A stretch of DNA of 36,775 nt, from the NCBI GenBank assembly GCA_026415775.1, contig JAOAGL010000001.1, positions 72,282 to 109,056 of the forward strand, read 5' to 3'. The stretch is from Patescibacteria group bacterium (GTDB taxonomy: Bacteria > Patescibacteriota > Minisyncoccia > UBA6257 > JAAZHW01). Made by a program: the position numbers and the translations under genes. The notes beneath the pieces were generated by a model that worked only from the letters and a program-made list of their open reading frames with translations, was not told the DNA's origin and did not search any database. This document shows positions 3,413 to 23,980 of the stretch, piece by piece. The first letter of the stretch is position 1. Every line of letters begins with the position of its first letter.

Positions 3413-4444
3413 ATGAAACAATTCCTAATTCTGGTTGCAAGCATTTATCTTGTTGGGATAATTCTCTTCATTATTATTTTCAATTATCAATTAAAACCTC
3501 TAATAGTAAGTGCTGATGTGAAAAACCAAAAAGTAGAATTTGTTGTTCAAAAAGGCGAAGGTTTTAAAGAAATTGCCGAAAATTTAGAAGCTCAACAATT
3601 AATCAAATCTTCAAAATCTTTTAAACTTTATCTTCTGCTTCATGGCTGGGCGAACAAATTAAAACCCGGAATTTATCAAATTCCTTATGAATTGCCCGCT
3701 TCGGAAGTGGCTAAAATGCTTTTAACTGGCGTTGTTGATGAAAAAACCATCACTATCCCTGAAGGATATACGCTTTCTCTAATTGAAGAAAAATTAAAAA
3801 ATGAAGGAGTTTTGGCGCAAGATGAATCGCTTTTGAAATTAAAAATCTCTGATTTTCAAAACGATTATTTCTTTTTAAAGGATGCGCCGGCGAATTATTC
3901 TTTGGAAGGATTTCTTTTCCCCGATACTTATCGTTTTAAACTTAATTCGCCAGCTAAAATTATTGCCAAACGAATGCTTGATAACTTAGAAAAAAATCTT
4001 ACTGATGGTATTCGTCAACAAATTGAACAATCACGATTTAATGTGTACCAGATTATTGCTTTGGCTTCATTAATTGAAGGAGAAATTCCTCATGCCGAAG
4101 ATAGGCCAATTGTGGCAGGAATATTAATCAAACGCCTTGATAATCAAATACCGCTTCAAATTGATGCAACAATTGTTTATATAAAATGTGAAATTTTAAA
4201 AACGGAAAATTGCCGAAAATTATCATTAGATGATTTAAAAATTCCTTCACCTTATAACACCTATCAAAATTTAGGATTGCCCAAAGGACCAATTAATAAT
4301 CCTGGTTTAAATGCCATTGAGGCTGTTCTTAATCCATTAGAAAGTGCTTATTGGTATTATTTATCTGATCCCAAAACAGGAAATACAATTTTTTCAAAAA
4401 CTTTAAAAGAACATAATGCAGCAAAAGCTAAGTATTTGAAATAA
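3413..4444 (+). CDS. mltG: endolytic murein transglycosylase MltG (YceG-like)
   Basis: N-terminal TM helix, LEGFLFPDTY, ASLIEGE and PGLNAIEAVLNP motifs of the YceG family. Confidence 0.85.
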   Translation: MKQFLILVASIYLVGIILFIIIFNYQLKPLIVSADVKNQKVEFVVQKGEGFKEIAENLEAQQLIKSSKSFKLYLLLHGWANKLKPGIYQIPYELPASEVAKMLLTGVVDEKTITIPEGYTLSLIEEKLKNEGVLAQDESLLKLKISDFQNDYFFLKDAPANYSLEGFLFPDTYRFKLNSPAKIIAKRMLDNLEKNLTDGIRQQIEQSRFNVYQIIALASLIEGEIPHAEDRPIVAGILIKRLDNQIPLQIDATIVYIKCEILKTENCRKLSLDDLKIPSPYNTYQNLGLPKGPINNPGLNAIEAVLNPLESAYWYYLSDPKTGNTIFSKTLKEHNAAKAKYLK

Positions 4445-5678: not shown

Positions 5679-6770
5679 TTAGTATTGATAAGCGTCAACA
5701 ACTAATCCCTTATTATCCTTTAAAATAATTTTGTCATGACTCCTATCCGCTAGACTGTTATTTACAAAAACGTACCATTCGTTTTGAAAGAAATCTGAAT
5801 TGTTTTGGTATTTATTAACGCAATTATCATAACCATAATAACTATTTAAAAATTGCTGACAAGAAAAATCACCGACAAAACGGTTAACATCAATACTTGT
5901 AGGAATTTGGCACCTTCCTAAATTATTAATATAACGTTGGCAATCGCTTGATAAATAAGAAATGTCATTTTCTAATGGCCGCGGGCAATCTAAACGAAAA
6001 AGATTATAAAAATTATAAGAATTTGTTAGATAACCGAAGCAGCGATTCAAATAAAAATTAACGACAATCGGACTGCCCGCTCCCACTATTATTAAAGAAT
6101 CTTGAGGATTTAAAATAATATTTTGCCAAATCAAACTAGAATTTAATCGGAAAAATTTAACAGCACTACCAATTGAGTAACTACGTGAATTACTTTCTAT
6201 CGTCCAACCATTCAAATCAATATTTGTACCAGAACGATTAACTAAGGTCAATTTTTGCGGTGTATTTTGAGGATAAACAGAAGCTATCTTTACCTGTCCA
6301 GCTTTGTCTGAAAGTTTTGCTCTAAAAACTCTCTGCGCTGGAGTATAATCTTCAATTCCGTCTTTGGTTTTTGCTCGGACATAAAAATAATAAGTGCGCT
6401 CGCCCGGCAATAATTGGACTACTCTGATATTGCTGCTGCTCACCTGCCAATCTGTATCAATACCATCTACTTTGGTTTCAAAAACTAATCCCCGTTGATC
6501 CCCGCTCCAAATTGCTACAAATTGAAAAACAGCCACATTGTTATCCGCAATCTCCTCCCAGTCTTTTGGACCAGAAATAATTACTGTTTCGGGTCGCGGA
6601 CCAGTATAAGGAGTCGGATAAGGCGTGGCTGTTTTCCACGATGACTGGTTAGAAATTTTTAAACCCTCTAATCCAGGCAATGAAACCTTTATTGGACTAA
6701 AATTAGCCAAAACAAAAAGAATTATTCCAAATCCAATTAATAAAAATACTATGGGTAAAGTTTTTGGCAT
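5679..6770 (-). CDS. secreted/membrane-anchored protein with lamin-tail (LTD)-like domain and Cys-rich C-terminus
   Basis: N-terminal TM helix; LVNRSGTNIDLNGWTIES resembles the LTD motif; eight Cys in the last ~100 aa. The ATG overlaps the hsp20 stop (TAATG). Confidence 0.55.
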   Translation of the reverse strand: MPKTLPIVFLLIGFGIILFVLANFSPIKVSLPGLEGLKISNQSSWKTATPYPTPYTGPRPETVIISGPKDWEEIADNNVAVFQFVAIWSGDQRGLVFETKVDGIDTDWQVSSSNIRVVQLLPGERTYYFYVRAKTKDGIEDYTPAQRVFRAKLSDKAGQVKIASVYPQNTPQKLTLVNRSGTNIDLNGWTIESNSRSYSIGSAVKFFRLNSSLIWQNIILNPQDSLIIVGAGSPIVVNFYLNRCFGYLTNSYNFYNLFRLDCPRPLENDISYLSSDCQRYINNLGRCQIPTSIDVNRFVGDFSCQQFLNSYYGYDNCVNKYQNNSDFFQNEWYVFVNNSLADRSHDKIILKDNKGLVVDAYQY

Positions 6771-7198
6771 TAATCTTTGCTTTTAATTTTAATTTTTTTC
6801 TCTTCGGAGCGTGAAGGCGACTTCTTTGGCATTACAACTTTTAATACACCTTTTTCATAGTTTGCCTCAACCTTGTCCTCATCAATCTCAACAGGAATTC
6901 TAACTATTCTTTCAAATTCACCGCGTCGAATTTCTTTTCGCCAATAATCTTTTTTCTTTTCTTCTTCTTTACTTTCAGTTGAACCTTTTATAGTTAAAAC
7001 TTGATCTTTAACTGAAACTTCAACTTTCTCTGGATCAACGTTGGGCAAATTTAATTCAGCAATAACTTCTTTATCAGTTTGATAAAGGTCCATTGTCGGT
7101 TCTTTAAAGAAAGAGGTTGAAACAACTGGCAAAAACCAGTCATCATCTTCAAAAAATTTTTCTAAATCTCTAAAAGGACTCCAACGAATTAAGCTCAT
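6770..7198 (-). CDS. Hsp20/alpha-crystallin small heat-shock protein
   Basis: Alpha-crystallin domain pattern (DLYQTDKEVIAELNLPNVDPEKVEVSV...GEFERIVRIP...GVLKVVMPK). Confidence 0.9.
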   Translation of the reverse strand: MSLIRWSPFRDLEKFFEDDDWFLPVVSTSFFKEPTMDLYQTDKEVIAELNLPNVDPEKVEVSVKDQVLTIKGSTESKEEEKKKDYWRKEIRRGEFERIVRIPVEIDEDKVEANYEKGVLKVVMPKKSPSRSEEKKIKIKSKD

Positions 7199-10623: not shown

Positions 10624-11586
10624 CTATTTATCCCATTGAAAACCTCGACCAAAATGACCCCACGACGCTGTTTTTAAAAAAATCGGATTTCTTAAATTTA
10701 AAAATTTAATAATGCCTTGCGGCGTTAAATCATATCCTTTAATTTCATCACTTACTCCATCAACAATCACTTCCTTCATTAATGGTTTTTCCTCGCCAAT
10801 CGCATAAGCTAAACGTACAAAAACCTCTTTTGCTTTATATTTCCTTAAATAATCAACAGCAATTTTCCGCGCCATATAAGCAGCGCTGCGATCAACTTTG
10901 GTTCCATCTTTGCCGCTAAAAGAACCTCCTCCAACTGGTACATTTGGACCATACGAATCAATAACTAATTTGCGACCAGTCAAACCACTATCAGCATCAA
11001 AACCACCCGTTTGCCAATCGCCAGCTGGATTAATATAATACTTTTCTGCTTTAATTAATTTTCTTACTAATTTTTCTAATGTTTCACGTGAAACATTTTG
11101 AAAACTTGCTACAACTGATAAAACTTTTTTACCATAAATAGTCACTTGTGTTTTTCCATCATATGGAAACCTTTCGTAAATTTTTTGACAAAGATAACGC
11201 GATAATTCATATTCTAAAGGCATTAAACTTTTTGTGTCACTAGTTGCATAACCATTCATAATCCCTTGATCGCCAGCACCGCCTTTTTCTACGCCTCGAG
11301 CAATTTCCAAACTCTGCTCTACTAATCGTATTTCTAATTTAAATTTCAGACCAACAAATTTTTGAATAATTTTTCTTATTTCTTTTTCACCTAATTTTAT
11401 TCGACTTTTTACTTCACCAATCACAGCCACTAAATTATGACCAGCTAAAATTTCAATGGCTGTGCGCGCAAAGGGATCTTTTTTTAAATAAGCATCAAGC
11501 AAAGCATCAGCCATTTGATCGCATAATTTATCAGGGTGTTTTGGTGAAACAAATTCAGCGGTTTTAATTAATTTTTCTTTTTTCAT
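10624..11586 (-). CDS. metK: S-adenosylmethionine synthetase, compact 320-aa form
   Basis: HPDKLCDQ, GAGDQGIM, GLTGRKLVID and GGGSFSGKDGTKVDRSAAY motifs; loops are shorter than in ~385-aa MetK. Confidence 0.9.
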   Translation of the reverse strand: MKKEKLIKTAEFVSPKHPDKLCDQMADALLDAYLKKDPFARTAIEILAGHNLVAVIGEVKSRIKLGEKEIRKIIQKFVGLKFKLEIRLVEQSLEIARGVEKGGAGDQGIMNGYATSDTKSLMPLEYELSRYLCQKIYERFPYDGKTQVTIYGKKVLSVVASFQNVSRETLEKLVRKLIKAEKYYINPAGDWQTGGFDADSGLTGRKLVIDSYGPNVPVGGGSFSGKDGTKVDRSAAYMARKIAVDYLRKYKAKEVFVRLAYAIGEEKPLMKEVIVDGVSDEIKGYDLTPQGIIKFLNLRNPIFLKTASWGHFGRGFQWDK

Positions 11587-11644: not shown

Positions 11645-11758
11645 ACCAGTTATCTCTCCCTTTTAGGGTCTGGATTTGGCACCTTCTTTAAGGAGTCACC
11701 TTAAAGGGTTGCCGACGGATCATTGGGCCAGTTCCCTCCCCGCACTCGCGATAACTTT
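11645..11758 (-). promoter_or_regulatory. SAM-I (S-box) riboswitch aptamer
   Basis: The minus strand reads GTTATCGCGAGTGCGGGGAGGGAACTGGCCCAATGATCCGTCGGCAACC...AAGGTGCCAAATCCAGACC...GGGAGAGATAAC. This matches the conserved S-box cores (GAGGGA-UGGCCC-AUGA, GCAACC, GGUGCCAA-UCC, AGAUAA P1 closure) directly upstream of metK. Confidence 0.85.
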
Positions 11759-14137: not shown

Positions 14138-14875
14138 TTATTCCTCTTCTTTTTTTCTTAATAAATAATAACTGCAATAATTACAATCGGGGTCTGGAGG
14201 CGGAATTTTATTCGCTTCAAGAGTTTTTTTGATATTCATCAATGCATCCTCAATCCAACTATCATTGCCTTCATAAGGCAAAACTGAAATATCAAATTCT
14301 AATTTACCATCAAAAGCTTCTCTATCAGTTTTGCCATTGCAATAAACAAAAAAACCAGTTTTAGAAACTTTAAAACCATTTTTTTTAAAAAGCCATTGAT
14401 AAATTTCCATTTGTCTTTTGTAAGAATCTTTCCACTCATCATCAAGCGTCACTTCATTGCTGGAGCTGGTGCTTTTAAAATCAACAATATAAAGTACTCC
14501 TTCCTCGTCTACCCACACATCATCAATGGCTCCATAAATCTCTAAATTTGTCGGCTTGTGATAATAACGAATACCAACACGATTATTTCGCCATTCACTA
14601 ATTCGCTCATCATTTAATGGTTTTAATTTTATCCCATAGCGTTCTAATAGTGGGTATTTTTCATTTTTTGCTCGATGAATATCAAATTCCTTTTTCAACA
14701 AAGTATCAACTGCTTGATTTAAACTAAAAGGAAAACCCGGCGGCCGTGAAATACCTAAGCGAACATCTAAATAAAAACAACGCGGACATTCAATAAATAA
14801 ATCAATTTTTGAACGACTTAAAACAAAAGGTTCTAAACCTTCTGGCTGATAAATATTTCTTTCTCTTTTGTGCAT
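14138..14875 (-). CDS. PD-(D/E)XK nuclease, Cas4/RecB-like with cysteine pairs
   Basis: GAIDD...IVDFKS (D...D-x-K), QMEIYQW (QxxxY), N-terminal CPRC and C-terminal CNYC. Confidence 0.7.
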   Translation of the reverse strand: MHKRERNIYQPEGLEPFVLSRSKIDLFIECPRCFYLDVRLGISRPPGFPFSLNQAVDTLLKKEFDIHRAKNEKYPLLERYGIKLKPLNDERISEWRNNRVGIRYYHKPTNLEIYGAIDDVWVDEEGVLYIVDFKSTSSSNEVTLDDEWKDSYKRQMEIYQWLFKKNGFKVSKTGFFVYCNGKTDREAFDGKLEFDISVLPYEGNDSWIEDALMNIKKTLEANKIPPPDPDCNYCSYYLLRKKEEE

Positions 14876-14881
14876 ACGGAG

Positions 14882-15421
14882 TTATTTTACCAAATTAATT
14901 CCATAGCTGCTACTTAAAGGATCTTGAAAAAGAAAAATCTTTGGGGGATAAAAAGTAAAAACAGCAAAACAAATTAAAAGTCCAACCAATAAAACGAGAC
15001 CTAAAATCGCATACCCTCTTTGCACTGGCCGCCAAAACATAATCCAATAACTTAAAAATTGACCCGAAATCACCGCAATAATAAAAGTAGAAATATCTAA
15101 CCACAAAATATTTTTGCCTAAAATCGCGGTATAACCATAAAAAATAACGATAATTAAAACAGGCATTAGAAAAATTCCTTTTACTTTAGCAAAAACAAAA
15201 TTAGGAATTTCGTATTTTAAAATTTTATCTTCAATTAAAAGCCAGAGGACCGCCGGAAACACTGCTAATTTTAAATGCTCCCAGACACTTTCGTTCACGG
15301 CCGAAAAAATACCAACTAACCAAAAACGATTAAACCATTCAAAAGTAAAATGCAGCAAACTACCCAAAATAATAATAAATCCTGCGCCAATCAACTCCAA
15401 TCTTAAAATTTTCTTTCTCAT
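14882..15421 (-). CDS. polytopic membrane protein (DUF6512-like)
   Basis: Five to six TM helices. The tracked start is TTG; I prefer the ATG at 15421 (MRKKILRLE), but the start is uncertain. Confidence 0.5.
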   Translation of the reverse strand: MRKKILRLELIGAGFIIILGSLLHFTFEWFNRFWLVGIFSAVNESVWEHLKLAVFPAVLWLLIEDKILKYEIPNFVFAKVKGIFLMPVLIIVIFYGYTAILGKNILWLDISTFIIAVISGQFLSYWIMFWRPVQRGYAILGLVLLVGLLICFAVFTFYPPKIFLFQDPLSSSYGINLVK

Positions 15422-15531
15422 TTCCGACATCACCACCATTATAACAAAAAATAACAGCAAATGCGATTTGGCTATCTAATATTAAATCAACCACTACCAC
15501 ATTATATCACAAAATGTTCTCAATCTATATT

Positions 15532-15720
15532 TTAATTTTTATCTTTTTTATTATGTTTTTTATTATCCTTATCTTTTCGTACTACTATCTTAATTTTCCC
15601 ATCATAATTCTCTTGGAGTTCAGATATAAAATCATCAAATGTTTGCTTTAGATACAAATTATAAAGAATGGCACCACCAATGCCACCTAAAATAAAACAT
15701 AGAAAAAATAACCAAAACAT
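15532..15720 (-). CDS. small single-pass membrane protein with basic tail
   Basis: Internal ATG (MFWLFFLCFILGGIGGAILY) followed by a K/D-rich tail. The tracked TTG start is unlikely. Confidence 0.4.
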   Translation of the reverse strand: MFWLFFLCFILGGIGGAILYNLYLKQTFDDFISELQENYDGKIKIVVRKDKDNKKHNKKDKN

Positions 15721-15819
15721 CTTTTTGGTTTTAAACGACCTTTGCCTCCTATATATACCGTTACAAGTGGAAAACTTGGCAATGCTTAACAAAAATCAGC
15801 CTTTATGACTGTAGATTTG

Positions 15820-16293
15820 CTAATTCAACATCCAAACCGCCAAATTAAGAATTGAAGCAAAAGTAACCCAGAGAATATAAGGAATCAAAAGAAAAGCGGC
15901 AAGCGGTTTTATTTTATAAAATTTAATAATGGTCAATAAAATCAAAATCCACAAAATAACAATTTCAAAAAAAGCAAAACCGAAGTTTTTCAAACCAAAA
16001 AATATTATTGACCACAAAGCGTTAAAAATAAGATGAATTAAATAAATTGAAAGCGCGGATTTGATATTTTTATTTTCTCTTTCTCGCCAAACTAAAAATG
16101 CCGCCACAGCCATCAAAAAATAAAAGAGGATCCAAGCTGGGCCAAACAACCAATTCGGCGGAGCGAAACTAGGCTTTTTTAAATACTGGTACCAGCTGAC
16201 TATATTTGGAGTGGTAAAATAAGAGCCAATGGAGGTAGTAAGAAAAACTAAAAGAAACGAAATGAAGAGTGGTAAAATGTATTTTTTAAACAT
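15820..16293 (-). CDS. tspO: TspO/MBR tryptophan-rich sensory protein
   Basis: Five TM helices; PPNWLFGPAWILFYFLMAVAAFLVW and W-rich pattern typical of TspO. Confidence 0.85.
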   Translation of the reverse strand: MFKKYILPLFISFLLVFLTTSIGSYFTTPNIVSWYQYLKKPSFAPPNWLFGPAWILFYFLMAVAAFLVWRERENKNIKSALSIYLIHLIFNALWSIIFFGLKNFGFAFFEIVILWILILLTIIKFYKIKPLAAFLLIPYILWVTFASILNLAVWMLN

Positions 16294-16330
16294 ATTATTT
16301 TTATTATAAATGATAGAAATAGAAATAAAA

Positions 16331-16353
16331 CTGTGGCGCCGAAGGCGCCGCAG
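16331..16353 (-). terminator. GC-rich hairpin terminator
   Basis: The minus strand reads CTGCGGCGCCttcgGGCGCCACAGtttt, after the 81-aa gene. Confidence 0.6.
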
Positions 16354-16368
16354 AAATCATTTATTATA

Positions 16369-16614
16369 TTAGTTTGAAGATGAAATTTCGTCGTTATTTT
16401 CTTTTAGCATCTTTTTACTTACAACAAAAAGATAAATAATTTCCAAAATGCCAACGGTATTAATAAAAAAGAGAATAATAAACCACCATTTTTGGCCCAA
16501 CCGAGCAGCACGCCACAAAGCCCAAAGTTTCCAAACAATACTCCAAGCTAAAAGAACGGCTAATAAAACAGGTGGGATGGCATATTGTTGAGCGATAATT
16601 TGAAAGTAATTCAT
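16369..16614 (-). CDS. DUF5652-like small membrane protein
   Basis: Two TM helices with WKLWALWRAARLGQKWWF. Confidence 0.6.
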   Translation of the reverse strand: MNYFQIIAQQYAIPPVLLAVLLAWSIVWKLWALWRAARLGQKWWFIILFFINTVGILEIIYLFVVSKKMLKENNDEISSSN

Positions 16615-16676
16615 AAAAAACTTTTTGATGCGACTAAAATAATTATAACATTTTTAAATTTTTTATAAAAAGAAAA

Positions 16677-16693
16677 GCGGCGCTATGCGCCGC
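16677..16693 (-). terminator. GC-rich hairpin terminator (GCGGCGC-N3-GCGCCGC)
   Basis: Starts 9 nt beyond the stop codon at 16702 and is followed by a T-run on the minus strand. Confidence 0.6.
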
Positions 16694-16701
16694 CTGATTT
16701 T

Positions 16702-17187
16702 TTAAATTAAAAACAAAAGGCGAGGAATCCTCTGAGAATCCACATCCAACTTAAAACATTCTCTGCTCATCCACTGCAACAGATCTCCTTTTTTTATTTG
16801 AAGTTCCTCAAATAAAAATTTTGCTCTAGTCAAAATGATTAATTCATTTAAACTTAATTCCCCTCTTACTTCTAAAAATTTCTTAATTCTCTCTTTTTCT
16901 TTTTCTTTTAATTGATACTCGGGGGTTTTCACAAAAGTAAAATAATACCCTTTACCATTAAATTTAATTTCAATATACCCTGCCGTCTCAGCAATCGCAA
17001 CATAATGATCAATCAAATCCGAAAAGAAAACTCCACTCGGTGACATCAGAAAACCCCATTTTTCTTTTTTGTCATATTGGTAAAGAAATATCAGCGCATT
17101 CAGCATTGTCCGACTAATCTTTTTCTGGGGAAATAGTTGTTCAAACGATCTAATCATTTCAACTAGAAGCGCAATTTGTTTTAACAT
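16702..17187 (-). CDS. hypothetical protein, paralog 1 of a YwgA/Panacea(DUF4065)-like pair
   Basis: Strong RBS TAAGGAGGTATTTA before the ATG. Shares ISRT..L.FL..WG...SG..S.LID...YI...GK..F.F...EL..I.L with the next gene. Function is unknown. Confidence 0.65.
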   Translation of the reverse strand: MLKQIALLVEMIRSFEQLFPQKKISRTMLNALIFLYQYDKKEKWGFLMSPSGVFFSDLIDHYVAIAETAGYIEIKFNGKGYYFTFVKTPEYQLKEKEKERIKKFLEVRGELSLNELIILTRAKFLFEELQIKKGDLLQWMSRECFKLDVDSQRIPRLLFLI

Positions 17188-17225
17188 TAAATACCTCCTT
17201 ATAAAAATTTTAAAAAACTAAAAAA

Positions 17226-17253
17226 ATTTTATTCACCAAAGAAAAGTTGTCAA
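17226..17253 (-). promoter_or_regulatory. sigma70-like promoter of paralog 1
   Basis: Minus strand: TTGACA, 16 nt, TAAAAT. Confidence 0.5.
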
Positions 17254-17293
17254 GGTTTTTTGGGAAAAATTTTATTAAAATGAAGAAAAGAAA

Positions 17294-17312
17294 AGCGGCG
17301 CTTCGCGCCGCT
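17294..17312 (-). terminator. GC-rich hairpin terminator (AGCGGCGC-ttc-GCGCCGCT)
   Basis: Overlaps the TAG stop of paralog 2. The stem is nearly identical to the hairpin at 16677. Confidence 0.6.
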
Positions 17313-17817
17313 AAATTACTACCTCAACAAGTTTTTTTATTTCCTCTCTTTCTAGAAAAGGGCGGGAATCACAAATCGCATCAATAATCATTTTCTTATC
17401 CTCCATTTGGTAATTATTCCGCATGTATACCGCAAGGGTAATAATGCCTAATTCATCCGCTTTAAACTGTTGAAATTTCTGTATGATCTGCGTTAATGCT
17501 TGTTTATCCTCCGCATTTAGAGAATCCGTAACATCTGTAGAAACCTCTCGAAAAATAAACCAACTATTTTTTCCCTCTCTTTTCACCGCGATGTATTCCC
17601 GTGCCTCCGCCCAGCTTAGAAATAAATCTATGAGTTCTGAATGGGGTCCTGACGAATTTTTCAAATGGTACCCCCATTCGTATCGCATCTGATCCGAGAA
17701 CAAGAAGAGTAACTTTTGAACTACAGTTCTACTCAGCCATTGACGGTGATATTCATTCTTCAACACCGCCAACAAATAACAAACTGCTGCCGTGCCTTTT
17801 TCCATAAGCTCACTCAT
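17311..17817 (-). CDS. hypothetical protein, paralog 2 of a YwgA/Panacea(DUF4065)-like pair
   Basis: RBS AAAGGAGGTTTAA before the ATG. LSRTVVQKLLFLFS...SSGPHSELIDLF...YIAVKREGKNSWFIF resembles the KLQKLLY...GP.s.eL core followed by a winged-helix-like segment. Confidence 0.65.
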   Translation of the reverse strand: MSELMEKGTAAVCYLLAVLKNEYHRQWLSRTVVQKLLFLFSDQMRYEWGYHLKNSSGPHSELIDLFLSWAEAREYIAVKREGKNSWFIFREVSTDVTDSLNAEDKQALTQIIQKFQQFKADELGIITLAVYMRNNYQMEDKKMIIDAICDSRPFLEREEIKKLVEVVI

Positions 17818-17858
17818 TTAAACCTCCTTTTAAATTTAAATTTTTAAAATTTTCTACC

Positions 17859-18011
17859 CTAAATTTTGCACTTTTTTTGTTTTTTGTCAAATAAAATGTG
17901 GGGTTGCATTAAATTAAATACAAAAACTACCTCAATCGAGGTGGTTTTTAAAAATTTAAAAAGGGTTTTTATTCCCTGATATTGTCCGGGCTCTGTCTTT
18001 ATTTTGCGCAT
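17859..18011 (-). CDS. possible 50-aa small ORF (low confidence)
   Basis: Internal ATG preceded by GAAGGGGGTGGTGTT (strong SD-like). However, the frame runs through the hairpin at 17923..17949 and through the next promoter. Confidence 0.2.
   Translation of the reverse strand: MRKIKTEPGQYQGIKTLFKFLKTTSIEVVFVFNLMQPHILFDKKQKKCKI
17862..17890 (-). promoter_or_regulatory. candidate promoter of paralog 2
   Basis: Minus strand: TTGACA, 17 nt including a TGc extension, then AAAATT. Confidence 0.4.
17923..17949 (-). terminator. hairpin terminator, copy A of a duplicated module
   Basis: The minus strand reads AAAAACCACCTC-gatt-GAGGTAGTTTTT (one C.A mismatch). Confidence 0.5.
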
Positions 18012-18127
18012 AACACCACCCCCTTCTTCTACTTTCAATCCTATAAAATTAAAATCTGATTCTTGAGGAGAAATGAATGAATCTCGCGAGTTATTAAACA
18101 CAATTAATTTATTCAAAATAATTTGCT

Positions 18128-18943
18128 TTATCTTGTTGCGTGTTTTTTAATAACCGCTCCAAAAGTTAAATCATAATAATTTTTTCTTTTTATGCTATAA
18201 ATTTTATAAGAAATTTTGTATTGTCTTTTTATAATATCCAGTGCTTTTTTTATATCTTTTTTTGCCAACGCCGATAAATGTCCCTTAAAACCCTCTATGA
18301 AGTCTTTTTCGCTTAATGTAGTTGCTAAATGAATCAGCCTTTTCTGTTTTAATTTCCAAGGGGAATCTCTTTGAATATCTTGAATAAAAATTTCCCCATT
18401 TTTTGGAAGTATTTTTATCATTTCTTCAATTGTTTTAATGGGATCTTTAAGTAAATGAAATGTGCTGGTACTTATTATGTATTTTAGTTTTGGCAATTTT
18501 AATTCTTTTGGGCTTTTTTTAATTTTAAATAATTTGATTTTTTTAAGAAGACCTCTTTCTTGAATATTTTTTCTTCCAAGTTTAATCATAACAGGAGAAT
18601 TATCCGCACCATAAAGCACCACAGAACGAAATCTATTTTGTTTGTATATTTTGCTGGCTATTGCTATTAGTAATAGAGCTGAGCCACAACCAAAATCCAA
18701 AATATTTCCCGGTTTTTTTACGAAAGATGTTTCTTCGAAAAAAATTCTCAAAATATCATCATAACTGGATAATCTGTTTTTAAAATACAAATTATAAGTG
18801 TATGCATATTGTTTCCGGAAGCGTTCGCTTATATTGGTAAAATAATATCTTTTTCCTTCTGTTTTGATACCAAGAATTAAAAAAGCCGCCTCTTGTAAAG
18901 ATTTGGCTTTTTTAAGATGCTTAATTAATTCTTTGCTATCCAT
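18128..18943 (-). CDS. class I SAM-dependent methyltransferase (small-molecule/RNA type)
   Basis: Motif I ILDFGCGSALLL, post-I GADNSPVM, ISTSTFHLLKDP. No DNA-methyltransferase (D/N)PPY motif. AT-rich and without SD. The start is uncertain (18943 or 18982). Confidence 0.7.
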   Translation of the reverse strand: MDSKELIKHLKKAKSLQEAAFLILGIKTEGKRYYFTNISERFRKQYAYTYNLYFKNRLSSYDDILRIFFEETSFVKKPGNILDFGCGSALLLIAIASKIYKQNRFRSVVLYGADNSPVMIKLGRKNIQERGLLKKIKLFKIKKSPKELKLPKLKYIISTSTFHLLKDPIKTIEEMIKILPKNGEIFIQDIQRDSPWKLKQKRLIHLATTLSEKDFIEGFKGHLSALAKKDIKKALDIIKRQYKISYKIYSIKRKNYYDLTFGAVIKKHATR

Positions 18944-19025
18944 ATTAAAATTATATAATAATTTAAAATAAATTAAAACCATATCGAATAAGACATCTTA
19001 ACAAATTTATTTTGTGAAATAGAAA

Positions 19026-19046
19026 AGAGGCTCTTAAAGAGCCTCT
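19026..19046 (-). terminator. hairpin overlapping the stop of the 346-aa gene
   Basis: AGAGGCTCT-taa-AGAGCCTCT, followed by TTTTCT on the minus strand. Confidence 0.5.
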
Positions 19047-20074
19047 TTTATTTTTTCAACTAATTTCTCTACCACCACTCCCCCCCCTATCTCCTCAAAA
19101 TTCATTCCATAAACTAATGAGGAAAATAGAGGTACTGCCTGTCCAATGTTGATATACGCCCCATCCTCGCTATTAATAATATTTTTCTGCCTCAAATATT
19201 CTATGACCACAGGGCGGCGATACGCAGTAAAAAAGCCTCCGTGATATTCGTAAATCCGTCCTGTAGAAATACTGCGCTCTCTCAACGAGTGTCTATCAAC
19301 AAATACTACATCATCTCCATCAACATTGAAGTTAGGAAGATAGGGGTAATCTCCACTAAAAGACAGTGTTCCATCAACAAATACTACTCTTGCCTCCGCC
19401 GATCCCTTTAATTCATTGACCACCCTCTGTTTGAACTGGGTGAGTAAGTTATTAAATGTCTCTGGATCTATATTGCGCCGCTCCTTTTTTTGATTGATGA
19501 TGGTGGCTTTATTTATAGCCTTCTCCCCTCTGAGTCTACTGCGGGTAATGAGTATAACTCTTTCATCACCTAAACTTACCGGGATTCCGTGATCTAACAT
19601 GGTCAGATCTACAAGAACTCTTTGCACGTCTCTGTCGGCTTTTTCTGCTTTGACTATCTCCGACATTAACTGAACTACATCAAAAGCTTCTCCGATTAGG
19701 GCCTCTTCAATCAGAACCCCTTTCTTTTCTTTCAACAATTCACCAAAAAACGACAAAGACGTGGCGTCATATACGACCACCTCAGATTCTTTAATTTTCT
19801 GTTCTATTTCTGCGCTAAGAGCACCATCATCATAAGTTACAACTTCCACGCTAGCATATTTAGCACGAAATTTTTCGTCGGTATAAAGAGCATCGGAAAT
19901 CTTTCTTGCTACTTCATCATTGACATGTAGCGCATGAGCACCCTGTGCTTTTCTGTACAAAATAAGAACTTTCTTTTTGGGTTTCGGTGGAGCAGGTGGA
20001 ACTGGCGGGGTCGGTGGTGTTGGCAGTGTCTTTTTACTTCCACCGCTAAAAATGGAAAAAATTTTTTTAAACAT
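19034..20074 (-). CDS. orphan 346-aa protein with N-terminal amphipathic segment and polyproline linker
   Basis: RBS GGAGGTTTGCG before the ATG. Begins MFKKIFSIFSGGSKKTLPTPPTPPVPPAPPKPKKK, followed by alternating beta/alpha-like segments (VLILY, VEVVTYDD, VVVYDA, VVFVDG, VVFVDR). I recognise no family motif. Locally about 48% GC in a hand-counted 60-mer. Confidence 0.7.
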   Translation of the reverse strand: MFKKIFSIFSGGSKKTLPTPPTPPVPPAPPKPKKKVLILYRKAQGAHALHVNDEVARKISDALYTDEKFRAKYASVEVVTYDDGALSAEIEQKIKESEVVVYDATSLSFFGELLKEKKGVLIEEALIGEAFDVVQLMSEIVKAEKADRDVQRVLVDLTMLDHGIPVSLGDERVILITRSRLRGEKAINKATIINQKKERRNIDPETFNNLLTQFKQRVVNELKGSAEARVVFVDGTLSFSGDYPYLPNFNVDGDDVVFVDRHSLRERSISTGRIYEYHGGFFTAYRRPVVIEYLRQKNIINSEDGAYINIGQAVPLFSSLVYGMNFEEIGGGVVVEKLVEKIKEAL

Positions 20075-20089
20075 CGCAAACCTCCATAT

Positions 20090-20132
20090 TTCTCCCTACT
20101 TGATCCCCCCTTTCGGTGGGGCATCGGGAGAA
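20090..20132 (-). promoter_or_regulatory. GC-rich stem-loop in the 5' leader of the 346-aa gene
   Basis: The minus strand reads TTCTCCC-GAT-g-CCCC-accgaaa-GGGG-gg-ATC-aagta-GGGAGAA, ending 4 nt before the GGAGG RBS. Confidence 0.4.
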
Positions 20133-20153
20133 TAATTTTAATTTGCTTATTTA

Positions 20154-20182
20154 AGTATAACAATTTATGATTATTTTGTCAA
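20154..20182 (-). promoter_or_regulatory. near-consensus sigma70 promoter of the 346-aa gene
   Basis: Minus strand: TTGACA, 17 nt, TATACT. Confidence 0.6.
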
Positions 20183-20242
20183 TATTAATTGGATTTTTAT
20201 AAAAATGCGGGGTTTTGTTCTATAAATTAAATAACGAAAGAA

Positions 20243-20269
20243 AAAACCACCTCAATTGAGGTGGCTTTT
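20243..20269 (-). terminator. hairpin terminator after tRNA-Pro, copy B of the duplicated module
   Basis: The minus strand reads AAAAGCCACCTC-aatt-GAGGTGGTTTTTT. Confidence 0.6.
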
Positions 20270-20275
20270 AGCTAG

Positions 20276-20347
20276 TCGGGCTGCCGGGATTCGAACCCGG
20301 ACTAAATCCTCCCAAAGGACTCGTGCTAGCCGTTACACTACAGCCCG
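20276..20347 (-). tRNA. tRNA-Pro (anticodon TGG)
   Basis: Cloverleaf: CGGGCTG/CAGCCCG acceptor, anticodon stem AGTCC/GGATT, loop TTTGGGA, CCGGG-TTCGAAT-CCCGG T arm. 72 nt, no CCA. Confidence 0.9.
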
Positions 20348-20394
20348 TTTCATTTATATATTATAACCAAAAAGAGCTTTGAAAAAAATTTCTG

Positions 20395-20466
20395 CGCCGC
20401 CACCGGGAATCGAACCCGGATTTACACCTTGAAAGAGTGTTGTCCTAGCCATTAGACGATGGCGGC
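20395..20466 (-). tRNA. tRNA-Glu (anticodon TTC)
   Basis: Cloverleaf: GCCGCCA/TGGCGGC acceptor, anticodon stem ACACT/GGTGT, loop CTTTCAA, CCGGG-TTCGATT-CCCGG T arm. 72 nt, no CCA. Confidence 0.9.
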
Positions 20467-20508
20467 TGATGTTTTTTATTTTATTGATTAAAAAAATTTT
20501 TTCAATAA

Positions 20509-20535
20509 AAAGGGCTGTCTATTAGACAGCCCTTT
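20509..20535 (-). terminator. hairpin terminator of the SPFH gene
   Basis: AAAGGGCTGTCT-att-AGACAGCCCTTT, followed by a T-run on the minus strand. Confidence 0.65.
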
Positions 20536-20541
20536 ATGCCT

Positions 20542-21495
20542 TTATTTTTCTTTTTGCTTCATTAATTTAGTAGTATCGAATACTGGTGTAATATCAGATC
20601 CGTAGGGGAAAAACATAATAGTGTTTGAAGGAGATTCAGCTACGCTGGGAAGATTTTTTATGAAATACCACTGTAAGTACTCTTTTGTTAAGGATTGTTG
20701 AATAATTTTATTAGATTCTGCTATCCCCTGAGCTTCAATGATTTTCCTCTCCTTTTCTTTTTGTTCTTTTAGAATTTTGTACTGCATCTCCTGGGCCTCC
20801 TGGTCAGCCTGCATTTTTCTTTCAATAGCCTGTTCTAGTTGATCAGGAAGCTTGACCTTCCTTATGGTAAAATCAACACCCAACACCCACATCTTTTCTG
20901 CTTTTTCACAAAATCGCTCAAAAATCCTTCTGCCAAATTCTTCTCTTTTTTGAGGGTGGGAGTAAATATCATTGGAGCTATAATTTACAGCGATGTCCCT
21001 TGCTGCACCTCGTAACTGAGGTAGTGCTACGGTCGAGAGTGGATCGCCTGAAATGTTTAACAAATATTTGTGGGCATTGGCAACATCAAGCCTATACCAC
21101 AATGTAGCATCCAAAAAAACCCTCAAGCCGTCATTCATCAGCACATCCATCGTTGTAGTAGCTCCTTCTCCTTCAACATTCAAAGGAATGTGCATGGTCA
21201 ACTCCTGGATCCGTCCGTCCATCTTTTCAACTTGTACAAATGGATTTACTAAATGTAATCCAGAGGGGATAATTTTCATTTGAACCTTACCAAATAGAAC
21301 GGGCACCCCCACATGGCCAACAGGAATCACCGTGAAAAAAGAGATTGAAAAAATTAAAATACATGTGCCTATCGCCAAAGCAATTGTACCCGTGGTTATC
21401 CCCTTTTTGTCATTCCCCTCTCGTACGTCCTTCAACCACCAAAGCAAACCTAATCCCGCAAAAATTCCCAAAACCAAAAGTCCTATGCCTTGCAT
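20542..21495 (-). CDS. SPFH/band-7 (prohibitin/HflC-like) membrane protein
   Basis: N-terminal TM helices, SPFH core (VPVGHVGVPVLFGKV...LRVFLDATLWYRL...), C-terminal coiled coil (QEAQEMQYKILKEQKEKERKIIEAQGIAESNKII). RBS CAGGAGGTTTAA before the ATG. Confidence 0.85.
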   Translation of the reverse strand: MQGIGLLVLGIFAGLGLLWWLKDVREGNDKKGITTGTIALAIGTCILIFSISFFTVIPVGHVGVPVLFGKVQMKIIPSGLHLVNPFVQVEKMDGRIQELTMHIPLNVEGEGATTTMDVLMNDGLRVFLDATLWYRLDVANAHKYLLNISGDPLSTVALPQLRGAARDIAVNYSSNDIYSHPQKREEFGRRIFERFCEKAEKMWVLGVDFTIRKVKLPDQLEQAIERKMQADQEAQEMQYKILKEQKEKERKIIEAQGIAESNKIIQQSLTKEYLQWYFIKNLPSVAESPSNTIMFFPYGSDITPVFDTTKLMKQKEK

Positions 21496-21508
21496 TTAAA
21501 CCTCCTGA

Positions 21509-21555
21509 TGTTCCTTTGTTGCCTGCCGACATAATCGGTTCAGGTATCCGGAACA
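21509..21555 (-). promoter_or_regulatory. GC-rich stem-loop in the SPFH 5' leader
   Basis: The minus strand reads TGTTCC-ggata-CCTG-aa-CCGA-ttatg-TCGG-CAGG-caacaaa-GGAACA, ending directly before TCAGGAGG. Confidence 0.35.
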
Positions 21556-21573
21556 TTTTTAATTTGCTAATTA

Positions 21574-21602
21574 TATATTAAACTTTTTTTAATTTTTGTC
21601 AA
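21574..21602 (-). promoter_or_regulatory. candidate promoter of the SPFH gene
   Basis: Minus strand: TTGACA, 17 nt, AATATA (TATATA at a 19-nt spacing). Confidence 0.45.
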
Positions 21603-21668
21603 GACTAATTTTTCTTGAATTATTCCATTCTTTTAGTAAAATTAAAAATTAGTAAATAATAAAATGTT

Positions 21669-21740
21669 GTCCCCGTAGTTCAATGGATAGAACAGCTCCC
21701 TTCTAAGGAGCGGATGGGGGTTCGATTCCCTCCGGGGGCA
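21669..21740 (+). tRNA. tRNA-Arg (anticodon TCT)
   Basis: Cloverleaf: GTCCCCG/CGGGGGC acceptor, GTTC-AATGGATA-GAAC D arm, GCTCC/GGAGC anticodon stem, loop CTTCTAA. 72 nt, no CCA. Confidence 0.9.
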
Positions 21741-21788
21741 CTTAAATAGTTTTTTGACATTTTGTTTTTAAAAAATAAGATTTTAGTA

Positions 21789-22967
21789 ATGAAGGTTTTG
21801 GCTATTGAAACAAGCTGTGATGAAACCTCAATAAGCATTTTGGAATTTGATGCTAAAAAAAGATGCCGCATTTTGGCTAATTTTGTTTATTCGCAAATTG
21901 CAGTGCATCAACCTTTTGGCGGTGTAGTGCCGACTTTGGCCAAACGCGAACACCAAAAAAATTTGGTCCCTATTTTAAAATTGGCCTTAAAAAAAGCTGC
22001 TTTATTAAAAAAGAGAAAAAATACTATTTCCTCTAAAAAAATCTCTATTATTAAAGAAATTCTGGCCCGCGATGAAATTTTACAACAACAAACGCTTGAT
22101 TTTTTTACTCAATATCAAAAACCTCAAATTCACTTCATTGCTGTTACAGCAGGACCAGGATTAGCTCCTGCTCTTTGGCCGGGCGTTAACTTTGCCCGCG
22201 CTTTAAGTTTTTATTGGCAAACTCCACTTATTGGTGTCAATCATTTAGAAGGCCACGTTTTGGCTAACTGGCTCCCCAAAGAAGAAAAAGTATGGCAAAA
22301 AATAAATATTTCTCCTAAAATTTTTCCAGCGTTAAGTTTAATTGTTTCCGGCGGCCATACTCAGTTGGTCTTAATTAAAAAATTAGGCCATTATAAAGTT
22401 ATTGGTGAAACACGTGATGATGCTGCCGGTGAGTGTTTTGATAAAACAGCGCGTCTTTTAAATTTGGGATATCCCGGCGGTCCAGCCATTGCTAAAGAAG
22501 CAGCAAAATTTCAAAAAGAAAATCCATTTTCTATTCAATTACCTCGGCCAATGATTAATTCAAAAGACTATGATTTTTCTTTTGCTGGTTTAAAAACAGC
22601 TGTTCTTTATTTAATTGAGGATTTAAAAAAGAAAAATGTAAATTTAAAAAAACTCAAACCTCTTATAGCTAAAGAAATCCAAGATAGTATTAATGAAGTT
22701 TTAGTAAAAAAGACGATTCAAGCAGCTAAAAATTTTAAAACCCACAGTATTATTTTAGGAGGTGGAGTAGCTGCAAACGAAAATTTAAAATTTTTATTAG
22801 CTAATGAAGTTAAAAAACAATTGCCAAAAATTCAACTATTTATTCCTGAAACAAAATATACTGGCGATAATGCCGCAATGATTGCTTTGGTTGGTTGGTT
22901 AAAGAAGAAATCTGCCAATATCAATAATTGGAAAAAATTAGAAGCTGATGCTAATCTGAGATTATAG
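21789..22967 (+). CDS. tsaD: tRNA N6-adenosine threonylcarbamoyltransferase TsaD
   Basis: MKVLAIETSCDETS start, GVNHLEGH, GGPAIAKEA and GGVAANENL motifs. The start is moved to the internal ATG at 21789. Confidence 0.9.
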   Translation: MKVLAIETSCDETSISILEFDAKKRCRILANFVYSQIAVHQPFGGVVPTLAKREHQKNLVPILKLALKKAALLKKRKNTISSKKISIIKEILARDEILQQQTLDFFTQYQKPQIHFIAVTAGPGLAPALWPGVNFARALSFYWQTPLIGVNHLEGHVLANWLPKEEKVWQKINISPKIFPALSLIVSGGHTQLVLIKKLGHYKVIGETRDDAAGECFDKTARLLNLGYPGGPAIAKEAAKFQKENPFSIQLPRPMINSKDYDFSFAGLKTAVLYLIEDLKKKNVNLKKLKPLIAKEIQDSINEVLVKKTIQAAKNFKTHSIILGGGVAANENLKFLLANEVKKQLPKIQLFIPETKYTGDNAAMIALVGWLKKKSANINNWKKLEADANLRL

Positions 22968-23026
22968 AATTTATTTAATAAGAATTATTTTTAATAATTT
23001 TGTCAAGAGATATTTTTAAACAAAAT

Positions 23027-23046
23027 CCCCTATTTATCCACAGGGG
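23027..23046 (+). terminator. weak hairpin (possible tsaD terminator) whose loop carries a perfect DnaA box
   Basis: CCCCT-atttatccac-AGGGG followed by TTTTATTTT. TTATCCACA lies at 23034..23042. Confidence 0.3.
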
Positions 23047-23188
23047 TTTTATTTTAAATTGTCCTGGTTGATTTTTAAGACCGCTCTTTATTTTGTTGTT
23101 TTAAACCCGCCCACTCACCCGCTCCATTTTTATCTCGATCCCGCCCACTTGTCTCATCCCATTCAGAACCATTGCCGACCTATGATAT

Positions 23189-23208
23189 GTCGCACAATAT
23201 TGTTTCAC
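23189..23208. repeat. left arm of a perfect 20-nt inverted repeat bracketing the parS array
   Basis: GTCGCACAATATTGTTTCAC is the exact reverse complement of 23581..23600. Confidence 0.9.
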
Positions 23209-23240
23209 AAAAATTTTGTGAAACACTTTCCCAACCAAAA

Positions 23241-23480
23241 TGTTTCACGTGAAACATTTTCGGCCTCCTGCACCCTAAAGTGTTTCACGTGAAACATTTC
23301 TGATATTTTTCAGGCTTAAACATTACTTAAAAAACCACTAAAAATGTTTCACGTGAAACATTTTAAGATTGAGTATTTCACAAAAAAATTCGCGAAACAC
23401 TCCAGGAATCAAAAAAACTTCCACAAAATGTTTCACGTGAAACATTTACCGAACTACCAAAAAGTGTTTCACGTGAAACA
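23241..23480. repeat. array of five exact parS palindromes (ParB-binding centromere-like sites)
   Basis: TGTTTCACGTGAAACA at 23241..23256, 23281..23296, 23345..23360, 23429..23444 and 23465..23480. This equals the conserved tGTTNCACGTGAAACa parS consensus. Confidence 0.85.
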
Positions 23481-23546
23481 CTTAAAACAAGTAAAAAATG
23501 AAAAATATAGAAAATATGTGAATTTGTGAATTTTTGCAATTTTGAT

Positions 23547-23574
23547 TTGACAAAAATGTTTCACATTGTATAAT
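23547..23574 (+). promoter_or_regulatory. near-consensus promoter of yraN embedded in a split parS
   Basis: TTGACA, 16 nt, TATAAT with TG immediately upstream. The spacer contains the half-site TGTTTCAC (23557..23564) and the partner GTGAAACA lies at 23581..23588. Confidence 0.6.
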
Positions 23575-23580
23575 TTTTTT

Positions 23581-23600
23581 GTGAAACAATATTGTGCGAC
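23581..23600. repeat. right arm of the 20-nt inverted repeat
   Basis: GTGAAACAATATTGTGCGAC. Confidence 0.9.
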
Positions 23601-23605
23601 GTATT

Positions 23606-23980
23606 ATGTCCAAGCAAACAAATAAAACCATCGGCACATTAGGAGAATTAATTGCTGAACGCCATCTTATAAAGGAAGGCTACAAGATTATTGCTAAAAA
23701 TGTCAGGGAGAAGTGGGGCGAGATTGACTTAATCGCCGATAATAAAAAAGAAATTGTTTTTATTGAGGTAAAAACTCTAATTCAAAAATCACCCTCTTTA
23801 TCAAACCTTAAACCTGAGGATCAAATGACCAACCATAAAATCCAACACCTTCAAAAAAGCATTCTTCATTATTTAAATAAAAATAAAATAAACGGAGATT
23901 ACCGCGTGGATTTAATTAGTGTTGAATTATACCCCCAATCTAAAAAATATCACCTTCGCCACTACAAAAATATTTTATAA
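23606..23980 (+). CDS. yraN: YraN/UPF0102 family endonuclease-like protein
   Basis: GTLGELIAERHLIKEGYKIIAKNVREKWGEIDLIA...IVFIEVKT pattern. ATG at 23606 is preferred over the tracked GTG at 23594. Confidence 0.8.
   Translation: MSKQTNKTIGTLGELIAERHLIKEGYKIIAKNVREKWGEIDLIADNKKEIVFIEVKTLIQKSPSLSNLKPEDQMTNHKIQHLQKSILHYLNKNKINGDYRVDLISVELYPQSKKYHLRHYKNIL

Follow-up and report, generated by a model that had tools for sequence, protein, structure and literature searches.

What sets four minus-strand genes apart from almost every other gene around them? The question arises in a 36,775-nt stretch of the Patescibacteria contig JAOAGL010000001.1 (the window in what follows). The closest named relative of any protein encoded there is in a Minisyncoccia metagenome-assembled genome, which places the host with the Parcubacteria-type Patescibacteria. 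Within the window, 38 open reading frames (ORFs) were scored for a Shine-Dalgarno (SD) sequence. An earlier inspection of the letters alone (the sequence-only reading) had singled out an SPFH gene, an orphan 346-aa gene and two YwgA/Panacea-like paralogs as exceptions in a window nearly devoid of SD sites, and had proposed that they form one acquired module with foreign-looking expression signals. The exceptions were real; the single module found little support. We give a probability of roughly 0.55 to a different explanation, namely separate monocistronic cassettes, in a hypervariable tRNA-flanked zone by the origin, that constitute a small SD-dependent expression class. The genes and their signals are as follows:

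16702-17187, minus strand: YwgA-like paralog 1, 161 aa; SD GGAGG 17198-17194, promoter 17253-17226, terminator 16695-16675; SD energy -13.6 kcal/mol
17311-17817, minus strand: YwgA-like paralog 2 (YwgA2), 168 aa; SD 17827-17823, promoter 17890-17863, ~38-nt leader, terminator 17312-17294; SD energy -12.8 kcal/mol
19034-20074, minus strand: orphan 346-aa gene; SD 20085-20081, promoter 20182-20154, 73-nt leader (~20147-20075) with hairpin 20130-20092 (fold z -3.9), terminator 19049-19023; SD energy -10.5 kcal/mol
20506-21666, minus strand: SPFH cassette, 1,161 bp, present or absent as a unit; gene 20542-21495, 317 aa; SD 21505-21501, promoter 21602-21575, 73-nt leader (~21568-21496) with hairpin 21554-21510, terminator 20532-20507; SD energy -11.5 kcal/mol

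The SD score was the RNA duplex energy between the 22 nt upstream of each start and the 16S tail CACCUCCUUA (the canonical tail; the 3' end of the host's own 16S is not in the window). The four genes scored -10.5 to -13.6 kcal/mol, and the remaining 34 of the 38 ORFs scored -6.1 kcal/mol or weaker. When any in-frame ATG, GTG or TTG within the first 50 codons was allowed as a start, the same four led, followed by -9.2 and then -6.6. GGAGG lies 5-6 nt from the ATG in all four. Given the 43 copies of GGAGG in the window (both strands), properly placed copies are expected by chance at ~0.2 genes. No SD was found in 12 genes beyond the window (contig L019) or in ~8 accessory genes of the sister strain L001. 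SD scarcity with a few strong exceptions (4 of 38 window ORFs, 0 of ~20 further genes) was therefore seen across a sample of ~60 genes, and this starting observation of the sequence-only reading was borne out.

The ordinary genes carry a mark of their own. The motif GTCG (often aaaGGTCG, tAGTCG or AGGTCG) occurred ~30 nt before the ATG in 8 of 36 genes, with 1.1 expected. Copies precede the starts at 3413(+), 7198(-), 10202(-), 12094(-), 13680(-), 16614(-) and 27620(+) by 21-34 nt. The motif was also found before starts in L019, L001 and the more distant relatives L005 and L006; TATAAT-like boxes stand a few nucleotides ahead of it. Ordinary genes of this lineage have short, AU-rich leaders with no SD, and GTCG probably forms the conserved 5' end of these leaders. 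At the ~30-nt position, GTCG is missing from all four SD-led genes.

Does the GGAGG act on the ribosome at all? If the anti-SD were lacking or hidden, the AAGGAGGT box might be the site of a regulator protein or RNA, or a part of the leader structure. An anti-SD motif is reported in only 48% of Parcubacteria 16S genes, i.e. it was undetected in about half of them (PMC9297842). In addition, GGAGG is not avoided inside genes (43 seen versus 25 +/- 5 expected), and in predicted folds a part of the SD/start region pairs with the mRNA 5' end or the early coding sequence. However, the 5-6 nt spacing is canonical and is likewise short in all orthologues (ATG or GTG starts). The SD box extends to AAGGAGGT, which complements the canonical 16S tail exactly, and the box is conserved while the rest of the leader varies. 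A non-ribosomal role of the box is unlikely.

The promoters and terminators were as described in the sequence-only reading. All four genes have an exact TTGACA -35 box (at 21602, 20182, 17890 and 17253) with proper spacing to a -10-like hexamer, and each is followed by its own GC-rich hairpin with a T-run. The SPFH terminator was read by eye in the sequence; the other three came from the terminator scan. Judged by the predicted promoter and terminator of each gene, the monocistronic interpretation is reasonable. Exact TTGACA boxes and hairpin terminators were also found at the native SD-less genes UPF0102, tsaD and TspO. Hence, it is by their SD and codon composition that the four genes stand out, and not by the promoter or terminator.

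The upstream regions of the SPFH gene, the 346-aa gene and YwgA2 resembled one another. Pairwise local alignments reached z 5.5-8.8 relative to shuffled sequences, above all 13 control upstream regions, and the similarity ran from TTGACAAAA through the spacer into the first part of the leader. The SPFH and 346-aa leaders open at the predicted +1 with AGCAAATTAAAA, which at ≤1 mismatch occurred within the window only at these two predicted +1 sites. Both leaders are 73 nt long, have the 5' box AGCAAAUU and place a stable hairpin just before the SD (fold z -2.4 for SPFH and -3.9 for the 346-aa gene). The terminators of the two YwgA-like paralogs are near-identical (92% over 26 nt). With the SPFH and 346-aa promoters and leaders apparently homologous to those of the resident YwgA2, the signals look native, and the earlier description of them as foreign-looking did not hold. 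No known RNA family was found in the leaders with Rfam, at gathering or permissive thresholds. Folding of the four leaders at 37 and 60 C, as a check for SD occlusion or a thermosensor, gave mixed and unconvincing results.

The base composition was only partly as claimed. Three of the four genes had a GC content of 0.393, 0.408 and 0.398, compared with 0.316 for the window, 0.251 for dnaN and 0.267 for the interleaved methyltransferase (GC at third codon positions, GC3, 0.20; no SD). Paralog 1, at 0.319, was not GC-richer overall, so the claim of four GC-richer genes stands for three of them (0.39-0.41). recA had a GC content of 0.384, which confirms the caution that total GC is weak evidence by itself. 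The signal shared by all four was guanine at the third codon position (G3). Their values of 0.29, 0.25, 0.24 and 0.20 compare with a mean of 0.125 and rank 1, 2, 3 and 6 of 36 (enumerated chance ~7e-5). The excess G-ending codons common to the four were GAG, AAG, CAG, GGG, AGG, CTG and NCG. The three GC-richer genes also had the three highest GC3 values in the window (0.35-0.40). The other accessory genes of the zone (271-aa, UMPH-1, 595-aa and NERD) are AT-rich and SD-less; accessory status therefore does not explain the SD/G3 signature.

Expression-linked codon bias is usually marked by C-ending two-fold codons. The combination of SD and codon bias could still be an ordinary mark of translation efficiency in highly expressed genes, with no special class behind it, and the strong consensus promoters, the individual terminators and the origin-proximal position on the leading strand would agree with that. 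The 5' stem-loops in two of the leaders could also stabilise the mRNA. But hsp20, the S1-domain protein, recA, metK and the pilins, typically abundant, have neither the SD nor the G3 bias, which makes a plain high-expression signature unlikely. The bias is, moreover, toward G-ending codons and not toward C-ending two-fold codons. We regard this explanation as improbable.

The oldest part of the set appears to be the YwgA-like gene with the Panacea fold. The two paralogs share 25% identity (E 3e-13). Paralog 1 had no match in Pfam, NCBIfam or PADLOC. For YwgA2, an AlphaFold2 model built from 7 sequences reached pLDDT 92.6, and its only significant Foldseek matches in PDB were chains B/D of 7YK3 (TMq 0.72-0.73, E 6e-6, probability 1.0), the M. 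tuberculosis DarT-DarG complex. From the chain length, the title of Deep et al. 2023 and the PADLOC DarG match, we infer that these chains are the DarG C-terminal domain. The closest known group is the Panacea antitoxin-domain family (PF13274/DUF4065), whose members include PanA, SocA, B. subtilis YwgA and the C-terminal domain of DarG (PMC8832971; 7YK3). The match of YwgA2 to the Pfam SocA_Panacea profile was weak (17.3 bits at a cut-off of 25.7, E 0.0096), as were those to the DarG C-terminal part (profile positions 163-304, 1.6e-4) and to PDC-M19A (7e-5) in PADLOC. The model thus supports a Panacea-like assignment at fold level (TM 0.72 for paralog 2), not membership in the Pfam family; to that extent, the YwgA/Panacea-like label was kept. 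The Panacea signature motif is GPV (PMC8832971). At this position, six YwgA2-type sequences have an invariant Gly-Pro (G57 and P58), but with His, Thr or a different residue in third place (GPH in YwgA2); paralog 1 reads SGV/SGA. A BFVD fold search with YwgA2 returned nothing significant, and the protein had no match in viral contigs or phage records.

YwgA2 orthologues were found at 86, 62 (L017/L018), 52 (L005, a Minisyncoccia metagenome-assembled genome) and 47% (L006) identity. A scan with the YwgA2 alignment gave one genome-contig locus, which was L005, and one weak metagenome-contig locus. In all orthologues, AAGGAGG stands at the right distance from the start (dG -12.2 to -13.4), and the neighbouring genes have no SD. 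A strong promoter together with AAGGAGG was present on the YwgA-like gene in every relative recovered. The composition is maintained as well: the YwgA-like gene of L005 has the highest GC3/G3 of its locus (0.46/0.30; neighbours 0.19-0.29/0.07-0.19). The orthologues in L005 and L006 adjoin DUF5652, DUF6512, PD-(D/E)XK and MamF/DUF4870 genes, as in the window, and in L005 the synteny continues with a 514-aa gene, DUF5663, metK and beyond.

The dN/dS of the YwgA-like genes was 0.15-0.22 (0.16 for paralog 1 versus L001), and the SPFH gene had a pN of 0.14 and a pS of 0.83. Both the YwgA genes and the SPFH gene are under purifying selection. Between YwgA orthologues, dS was saturated (1.7 or undefined), so any leftover foreign signature should have decayed. 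Judging from these comparisons, the SD and the composition of the YwgA-like genes must be maintained by selection and not passively inherited from a donor. Orthologues at 47-62% identity, conserved synteny, the retained SD and the saturated dS all speak against a recent acquisition, and the gene is, as far as the recovered loci tell, an ancestral, long-term resident of this Minisyncoccia lineage.

The Panacea-like fold raises the question of a toxin-antitoxin or defence island, in which Panacea-fold antitoxins or adaptors would neutralise the 346-aa, SPFH or 271-aa protein and an arms race would cause the hypervariability. The fold match to the toxin-binding DarG C-terminal domain, the weak DarG and PDC-M19A matches given above, the mosaic YwgA2 alleles (73-81% identity in the centre, 100% in the flanks) and the NERD and PD-(D/E)XK genes nearby are in line with this, and Panacea antitoxins are known to pair with very diverse toxins (PMC8832971). 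PanAT pairs, however, are bicistronic, while the genes here have a separate promoter and terminator each. YwgA-like genes occur singly in L006 (and in the part of the locus that the L005 contig covers) and paired in L017/L018. No toxin candidate was found beside the orthologues in L006 and L017, and none downstream in L005 (upstream is cut by the contig end). The Pfam match stays below the cut-off, and paralog 2 has GPH in place of the GPV motif, which paralog 1 lacks. None of the 346-aa, SPFH and 271-aa proteins matched a defence model, and the dN/dS values are those of overall purifying, not diversifying, selection. Such an island is therefore a doubtful explanation. A further difference from the known Panacea proteins is that the YwgA-like gene sits in conserved chromosomal synteny and not on a mobile element.

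The remaining two genes lie in separately inserted or deleted units. The features that delimit them are:

17885-17949, minus strand: right-hand direct repeat, in which the tRNA-Pro terminator hairpin and the sequence as far as the -35 box recur
18128-18982, minus strand: class I S-adenosylmethionine-dependent methyltransferase (Methyltransf_31, 9e-14); start probably at 18943
20242-20505, minus strand: tRNA unit, with tRNA-Glu 20394-20466 and its promoter 20505-20478, tRNA-Pro 20275-20347, and the hairpin terminator of the two at 20269-20242, which is the left-hand direct repeat (ARAGORN, Rfam, promoter and terminator scan)
21669-21741, plus strand: tRNA-Arg(TCT), right edge of the SPFH insertion site (ARAGORN)

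The Glu, Pro and Arg-TCT tRNA genes are thus interleaved with the set, as noted earlier.

The SPFH protein matches Band_7 (PF01145) over residues 56-246 with 92.9 bits (cut-off 23.6, E 3.2e-26). Two hydrophobic stretches near the N-terminus (~3-21 and 34-57) were read by eye in the translation, and the C-terminal region 185-298, a putative coiled-coil, matches prohibitin, HflC and stomatin chains. The gene product is, by these matches, a prohibitin/HflC-type Band_7 protein with a putative N-terminal membrane anchor. It differs from HflK/C or SPFH-NfeD operons in being a strain-variable single-gene cassette: no HflK, NfeD or FtsH gene is adjacent, the neighbours being tRNA genes and tsaD, and the score against the NCBIfam HflC equivalog was far below the cut-off (26 bits versus 134). 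No match to the SPFH protein was found in viral contigs.

The cassette was missing from L001, where tRNA-Arg and the tRNA-Glu promoter meet at a clean junction. Identity to the window is 100% for L001 over 23.7-31.1 kb and for its contig L019 over 23.9-36.8 kb. The same cassette-free junction was found in L017/L018 and in the metagenome runs X3 and X4 (joint 20505->21667), and the gene was present in run X2 and contig L002. An insertion next to tRNA genes, as had been suspected, is well supported by this clean absence in L001, L017/L018 and two metagenomes. An orthologue at 75% identity (L016) has the TTGACA box (TTGACAAAA), a long structured leader, AAAGGAGG / AAAGGAGGTTTAAGGTG and a terminator; the flanking DNA upstream of it differs from that of the window. 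The next SPFH homologues were at 39-45% identity by direct alignment (41-48% by search), and neither YwgA-like nor 346-aa relatives were present in their loci.

The 346-aa gene and the methyltransferase form one ~2.3-kb block between two ~65-nt direct-repeat copies, the repeat unit being the tRNA-Pro terminator hairpin and the sequence running to the -35 box. The right-hand repeat (I2) is 89% identical (local alignment score 53, shuffle mean 22, z 8.8). The block is absent in L017/L018, where the tRNA-Pro terminator is followed by 165 nt and then the YwgA2 promoter. The AT-rich, SD-less methyltransferase hence travels with the SD-led 346-aa gene.

The orphan status of the 346-aa gene was confirmed. 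A word-index homologue search returned the query alone, and an exhaustive HMMER search of 1.84 billion representatives gave a single remote match, P0008 (28% identity, E 2e-4). The protein had no match in Pfam, NCBIfam, PADLOC, PHROG, PDB, viral contigs, or phage and plasmid records. P0008 lies on a 2.8-kb contig with three genes without an NCBIfam match, and its Ala/Gly/Arg-rich protein points to a clearly higher-GC genome. A single-sequence AlphaFold model of the 346-aa protein was unusable (pLDDT 39.6). Its N-terminus, MFKKIFSIFSGG with a Pro-rich linker, is similar in P0008 and is possibly an amphipathic membrane-targeting helix.

Between the methyltransferase stop and the duplicated hairpin lie ~180 nt that are relatively GC-rich (17950-18127, minus strand). 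The 80-85-aa ORF called there runs through the terminator and promoter and has no SD, family or Rfam match; the segment may be a gene remnant or a small RNA.

These units sit in a zone that varies strongly between strains. Among L001, L002, L007 and L019, strains that are 100% identical over 23.7-36.8 kb were only 85-92% identical over 14.4-17.26 and 21.6-23.7 kb, and both the putative origin and tsaD are in these low-identity segments. In L002 and L007, YwgA2 was 73-81% identical in its centre (17400-17700), between identical flanks. By this pattern, 14386-23700 is a recombination mosaic next to the probable origin. In L001 and L002, an extra 271-aa gene lies on the opposite strand between the two paralogs (L001 12815-13630; junction at window 17261/17279). 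It is AT-rich and SD-less, gave no PADLOC, PHROGs, NCBIfam or precomputed Pfam match, and by its position between two Panacea-like paralogs is a candidate partner. The sister strains also carry extra UMPH-1 and 595-aa genes further on, and NERD and PD-(D/E)XK genes lie within the zone. No integrase, recombinase or transposase domain was found in any window ORF, nor was a direct repeat of a tRNA 3' end. An integron-like or integrase-mediated tRNA island was rejected: there is no recombinase, and the only flanking repeat is a terminator and promoter segment. The locus resembles tRNA-associated islands and plasticity regions in its insertions and deletions by tRNA genes, its mosaic identity between strains and its accessory genes. 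It differs from such islands in the missing integrase and duplicated tRNA 3' end, in the nature of the repeat and in its single-gene units.

From the presence and absence of these units, at least three separate insertion or deletion events shaped the locus, so the single acquired module of the sequence-only reading falls, although a history and expression design of the four genes distinct from their neighbours is supported. One horizontally acquired module by the tRNA genes with jointly acting products is very unlikely and, by lack of co-occurrence, largely refuted: four genes within 4.9 kb that share SD and G-rich third positions next to three tRNA genes in a hypervariable zone, and closest non-lineage SPFH homologues in GC-richer SD-using genomes, would suit it, but the SPFH gene is missing from strains that have the other three genes, L017/L018 have both paralogs without the SPFH gene, the 346-aa gene or the methyltransferase, L006 has a single YwgA-like gene in conserved synteny without the other families (L005 likewise downstream, its upstream side being cut by the contig end), the SPFH homologue loci contain neither partner, no integrase, recombinase or tRNA-fragment repeat exists, and the four families co-occurred in no other locus recovered, an outcome that the sequence-only reading had itself named as refuting.

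The preferred explanation, separate cassettes forming a small SD-dependent expression class, would work as follows. In the hypervariable zone at ~14.4-23.7 kb of the window, the oldest resident would be the YwgA-like Panacea-fold gene. The SPFH cassette and the 346-aa/methyltransferase block would have been gained or lost later, in separate events, each using a promoter and leader homologous to those of YwgA2. Ordinary mRNAs would have short AU-rich, SD-less leaders, and the four mRNAs would be translated by SD/anti-SD pairing. Such pairing would create a separate translational class with higher or conditional expression. The copied resident terminator-promoter-leader segment would make newly arrived coding sequences expressible. 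A role in the envelope or in stress would suit a membrane scaffold, a Panacea-fold pair and an orphan that may be membrane-associated; no functional link between them was seen.

Several points weigh against this explanation. The SD frequency comes from ~60 genes of this genome and not from the whole genome. The 48% figure for the anti-SD motif in Parcubacteria leaves SD/anti-SD pairing unproven here. Promoters, +1 sites and expression level are predictions throughout, AT-rich upstream regions align easily, and the upstream region of paralog 1 showed no significant similarity to the other three (z 0.8-3.1). Few genomes underlie the polarity of the events, insertion versus deletion. Outside the lineage, the nearest SPFH homologues are in genomes with 42-46% GC that use SDs widely; an old foreign origin is possible for the SPFH gene, and for that gene only.

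The closest described parallel is found in Flavobacteriia/Bacteroidia, in which ribosomes are 'blind' to the SD and rpsU (bS21) is SD-led (PMC7797042, PMC9976891, PMC13000453). In both cases, a nearly SD-less genome has a tiny set of genes with a strong conserved SD, implying a separate translational channel. In Flavobacterium, however, the SD-led gene encodes a ribosomal protein in an autoregulatory loop, whereas the genes with an SD here encode members of a Panacea-fold family, an SPFH protein and an orphan. The two cases also differ in phylum, the present one being in the Patescibacteria. In the Bacteroidia type, bS21/bS18/bS6 sequester the anti-SD; no rRNA, rpsU, rpsR or rpsF gene was found in the window or in the recovered loci. 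Based on ~60 genes, we regard the locus as a variant, in the Candidate Phyla Radiation (CPR), of rare SD-led genes in an SD-poor genome, with promoter and leader re-use in addition.

A wider generalisation is tentative, with a fairly low chance of being right. Parcubacteria-type bacteria with few SDs may retain a limited, conserved group of SD-led genes, anchored by the Panacea-fold family, on a separate translation route, and a portable cassette may have recruited the SPFH and 346-aa genes to it. SD-led rpsU in Flavobacteria would then be a parallel. The route could be a ribosome sub-population or a condition in which the anti-SD is available. The cassette would consist of the TTGACAAAA promoter, a leader starting with AGCAAAUUAAAA (73 nt with a hairpin in two genes) and GGAGGUUU.

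Translation start in Patescibacteria (CPR) is essentially unstudied, and many Parcubacteria reportedly have no anti-SD. A few perfect, conserved SDs in an SD-less genome offer a handle on which ribosomes use them, under which conditions and why at these genes. The locus further suggests how a reduced genome makes new single genes expressible, by re-use of a resident promoter, leader and SD, and it identifies a conserved Panacea-fold family without a toxin partner.

The zone is next to the probable replication origin. The cumulative GC skew has its minimum at ~23-24 kb of the window. Here, 22968-23593 comprises 626 bp without genes, with five perfect copies of the 16-bp palindrome TGTTTCACGTGAAACA (0.01 expected), two split palindromes (TGTTTCACA-N-TGTGAAACA) and, within a hairpin, the canonical DnaA box TGTGGATAA. 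The segment lies at the skew minimum and 2.5 kb away from dnaA. It is probably oriC, with an unusual DnaA-box variant or another origin-binding site. Another perfect copy of TGTTTCACGTGAAACA lies within metK (11080-11095). If the origin is placed here, the four SD-led genes are origin-proximal (1.4-6.9 kb away), and their transcription runs with the leftward fork (leading strand).

The rest of the window (31.6% GC) consists largely of core genes. These include an MnmA-type tRNA enzyme, FtsW/RodA, YceG, recA, hsp20, metK and tsaD as well as YebC, RuvC, dnaA, dnaN, recG, an S1-domain protein and gyrA. DNA near-identical to the window was present in hot-spring and sludge metagenomes.

Upstream of metK, a SAM-I riboswitch was found at 11647-11757 (minus strand, 69 bits), so classical riboswitch control is retained in this reduced genome. 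The leader of hsp20 (gene 6770-7198; leader ~7229-7185, minus strand) forms with the first codons a perfect ~16-bp hairpin that buries the AUG. In the predicted fold, the AUG was unpaired with a probability of 0.00 at 37 C and 0.03 at 60 C, and the leader sequence is conserved upstream of hsp20 in L005. The hairpin looks like an RNA-thermometer-type element on the start codon of an SD-less mRNA.

Further genes of interest lie ~5-6.5 kb past the right end of the window. In L019 (15205-16552), three tandem T4SS_pilin-family genes, all without an SD, follow gyrA, a methyltransferase and a solute-binding protein.

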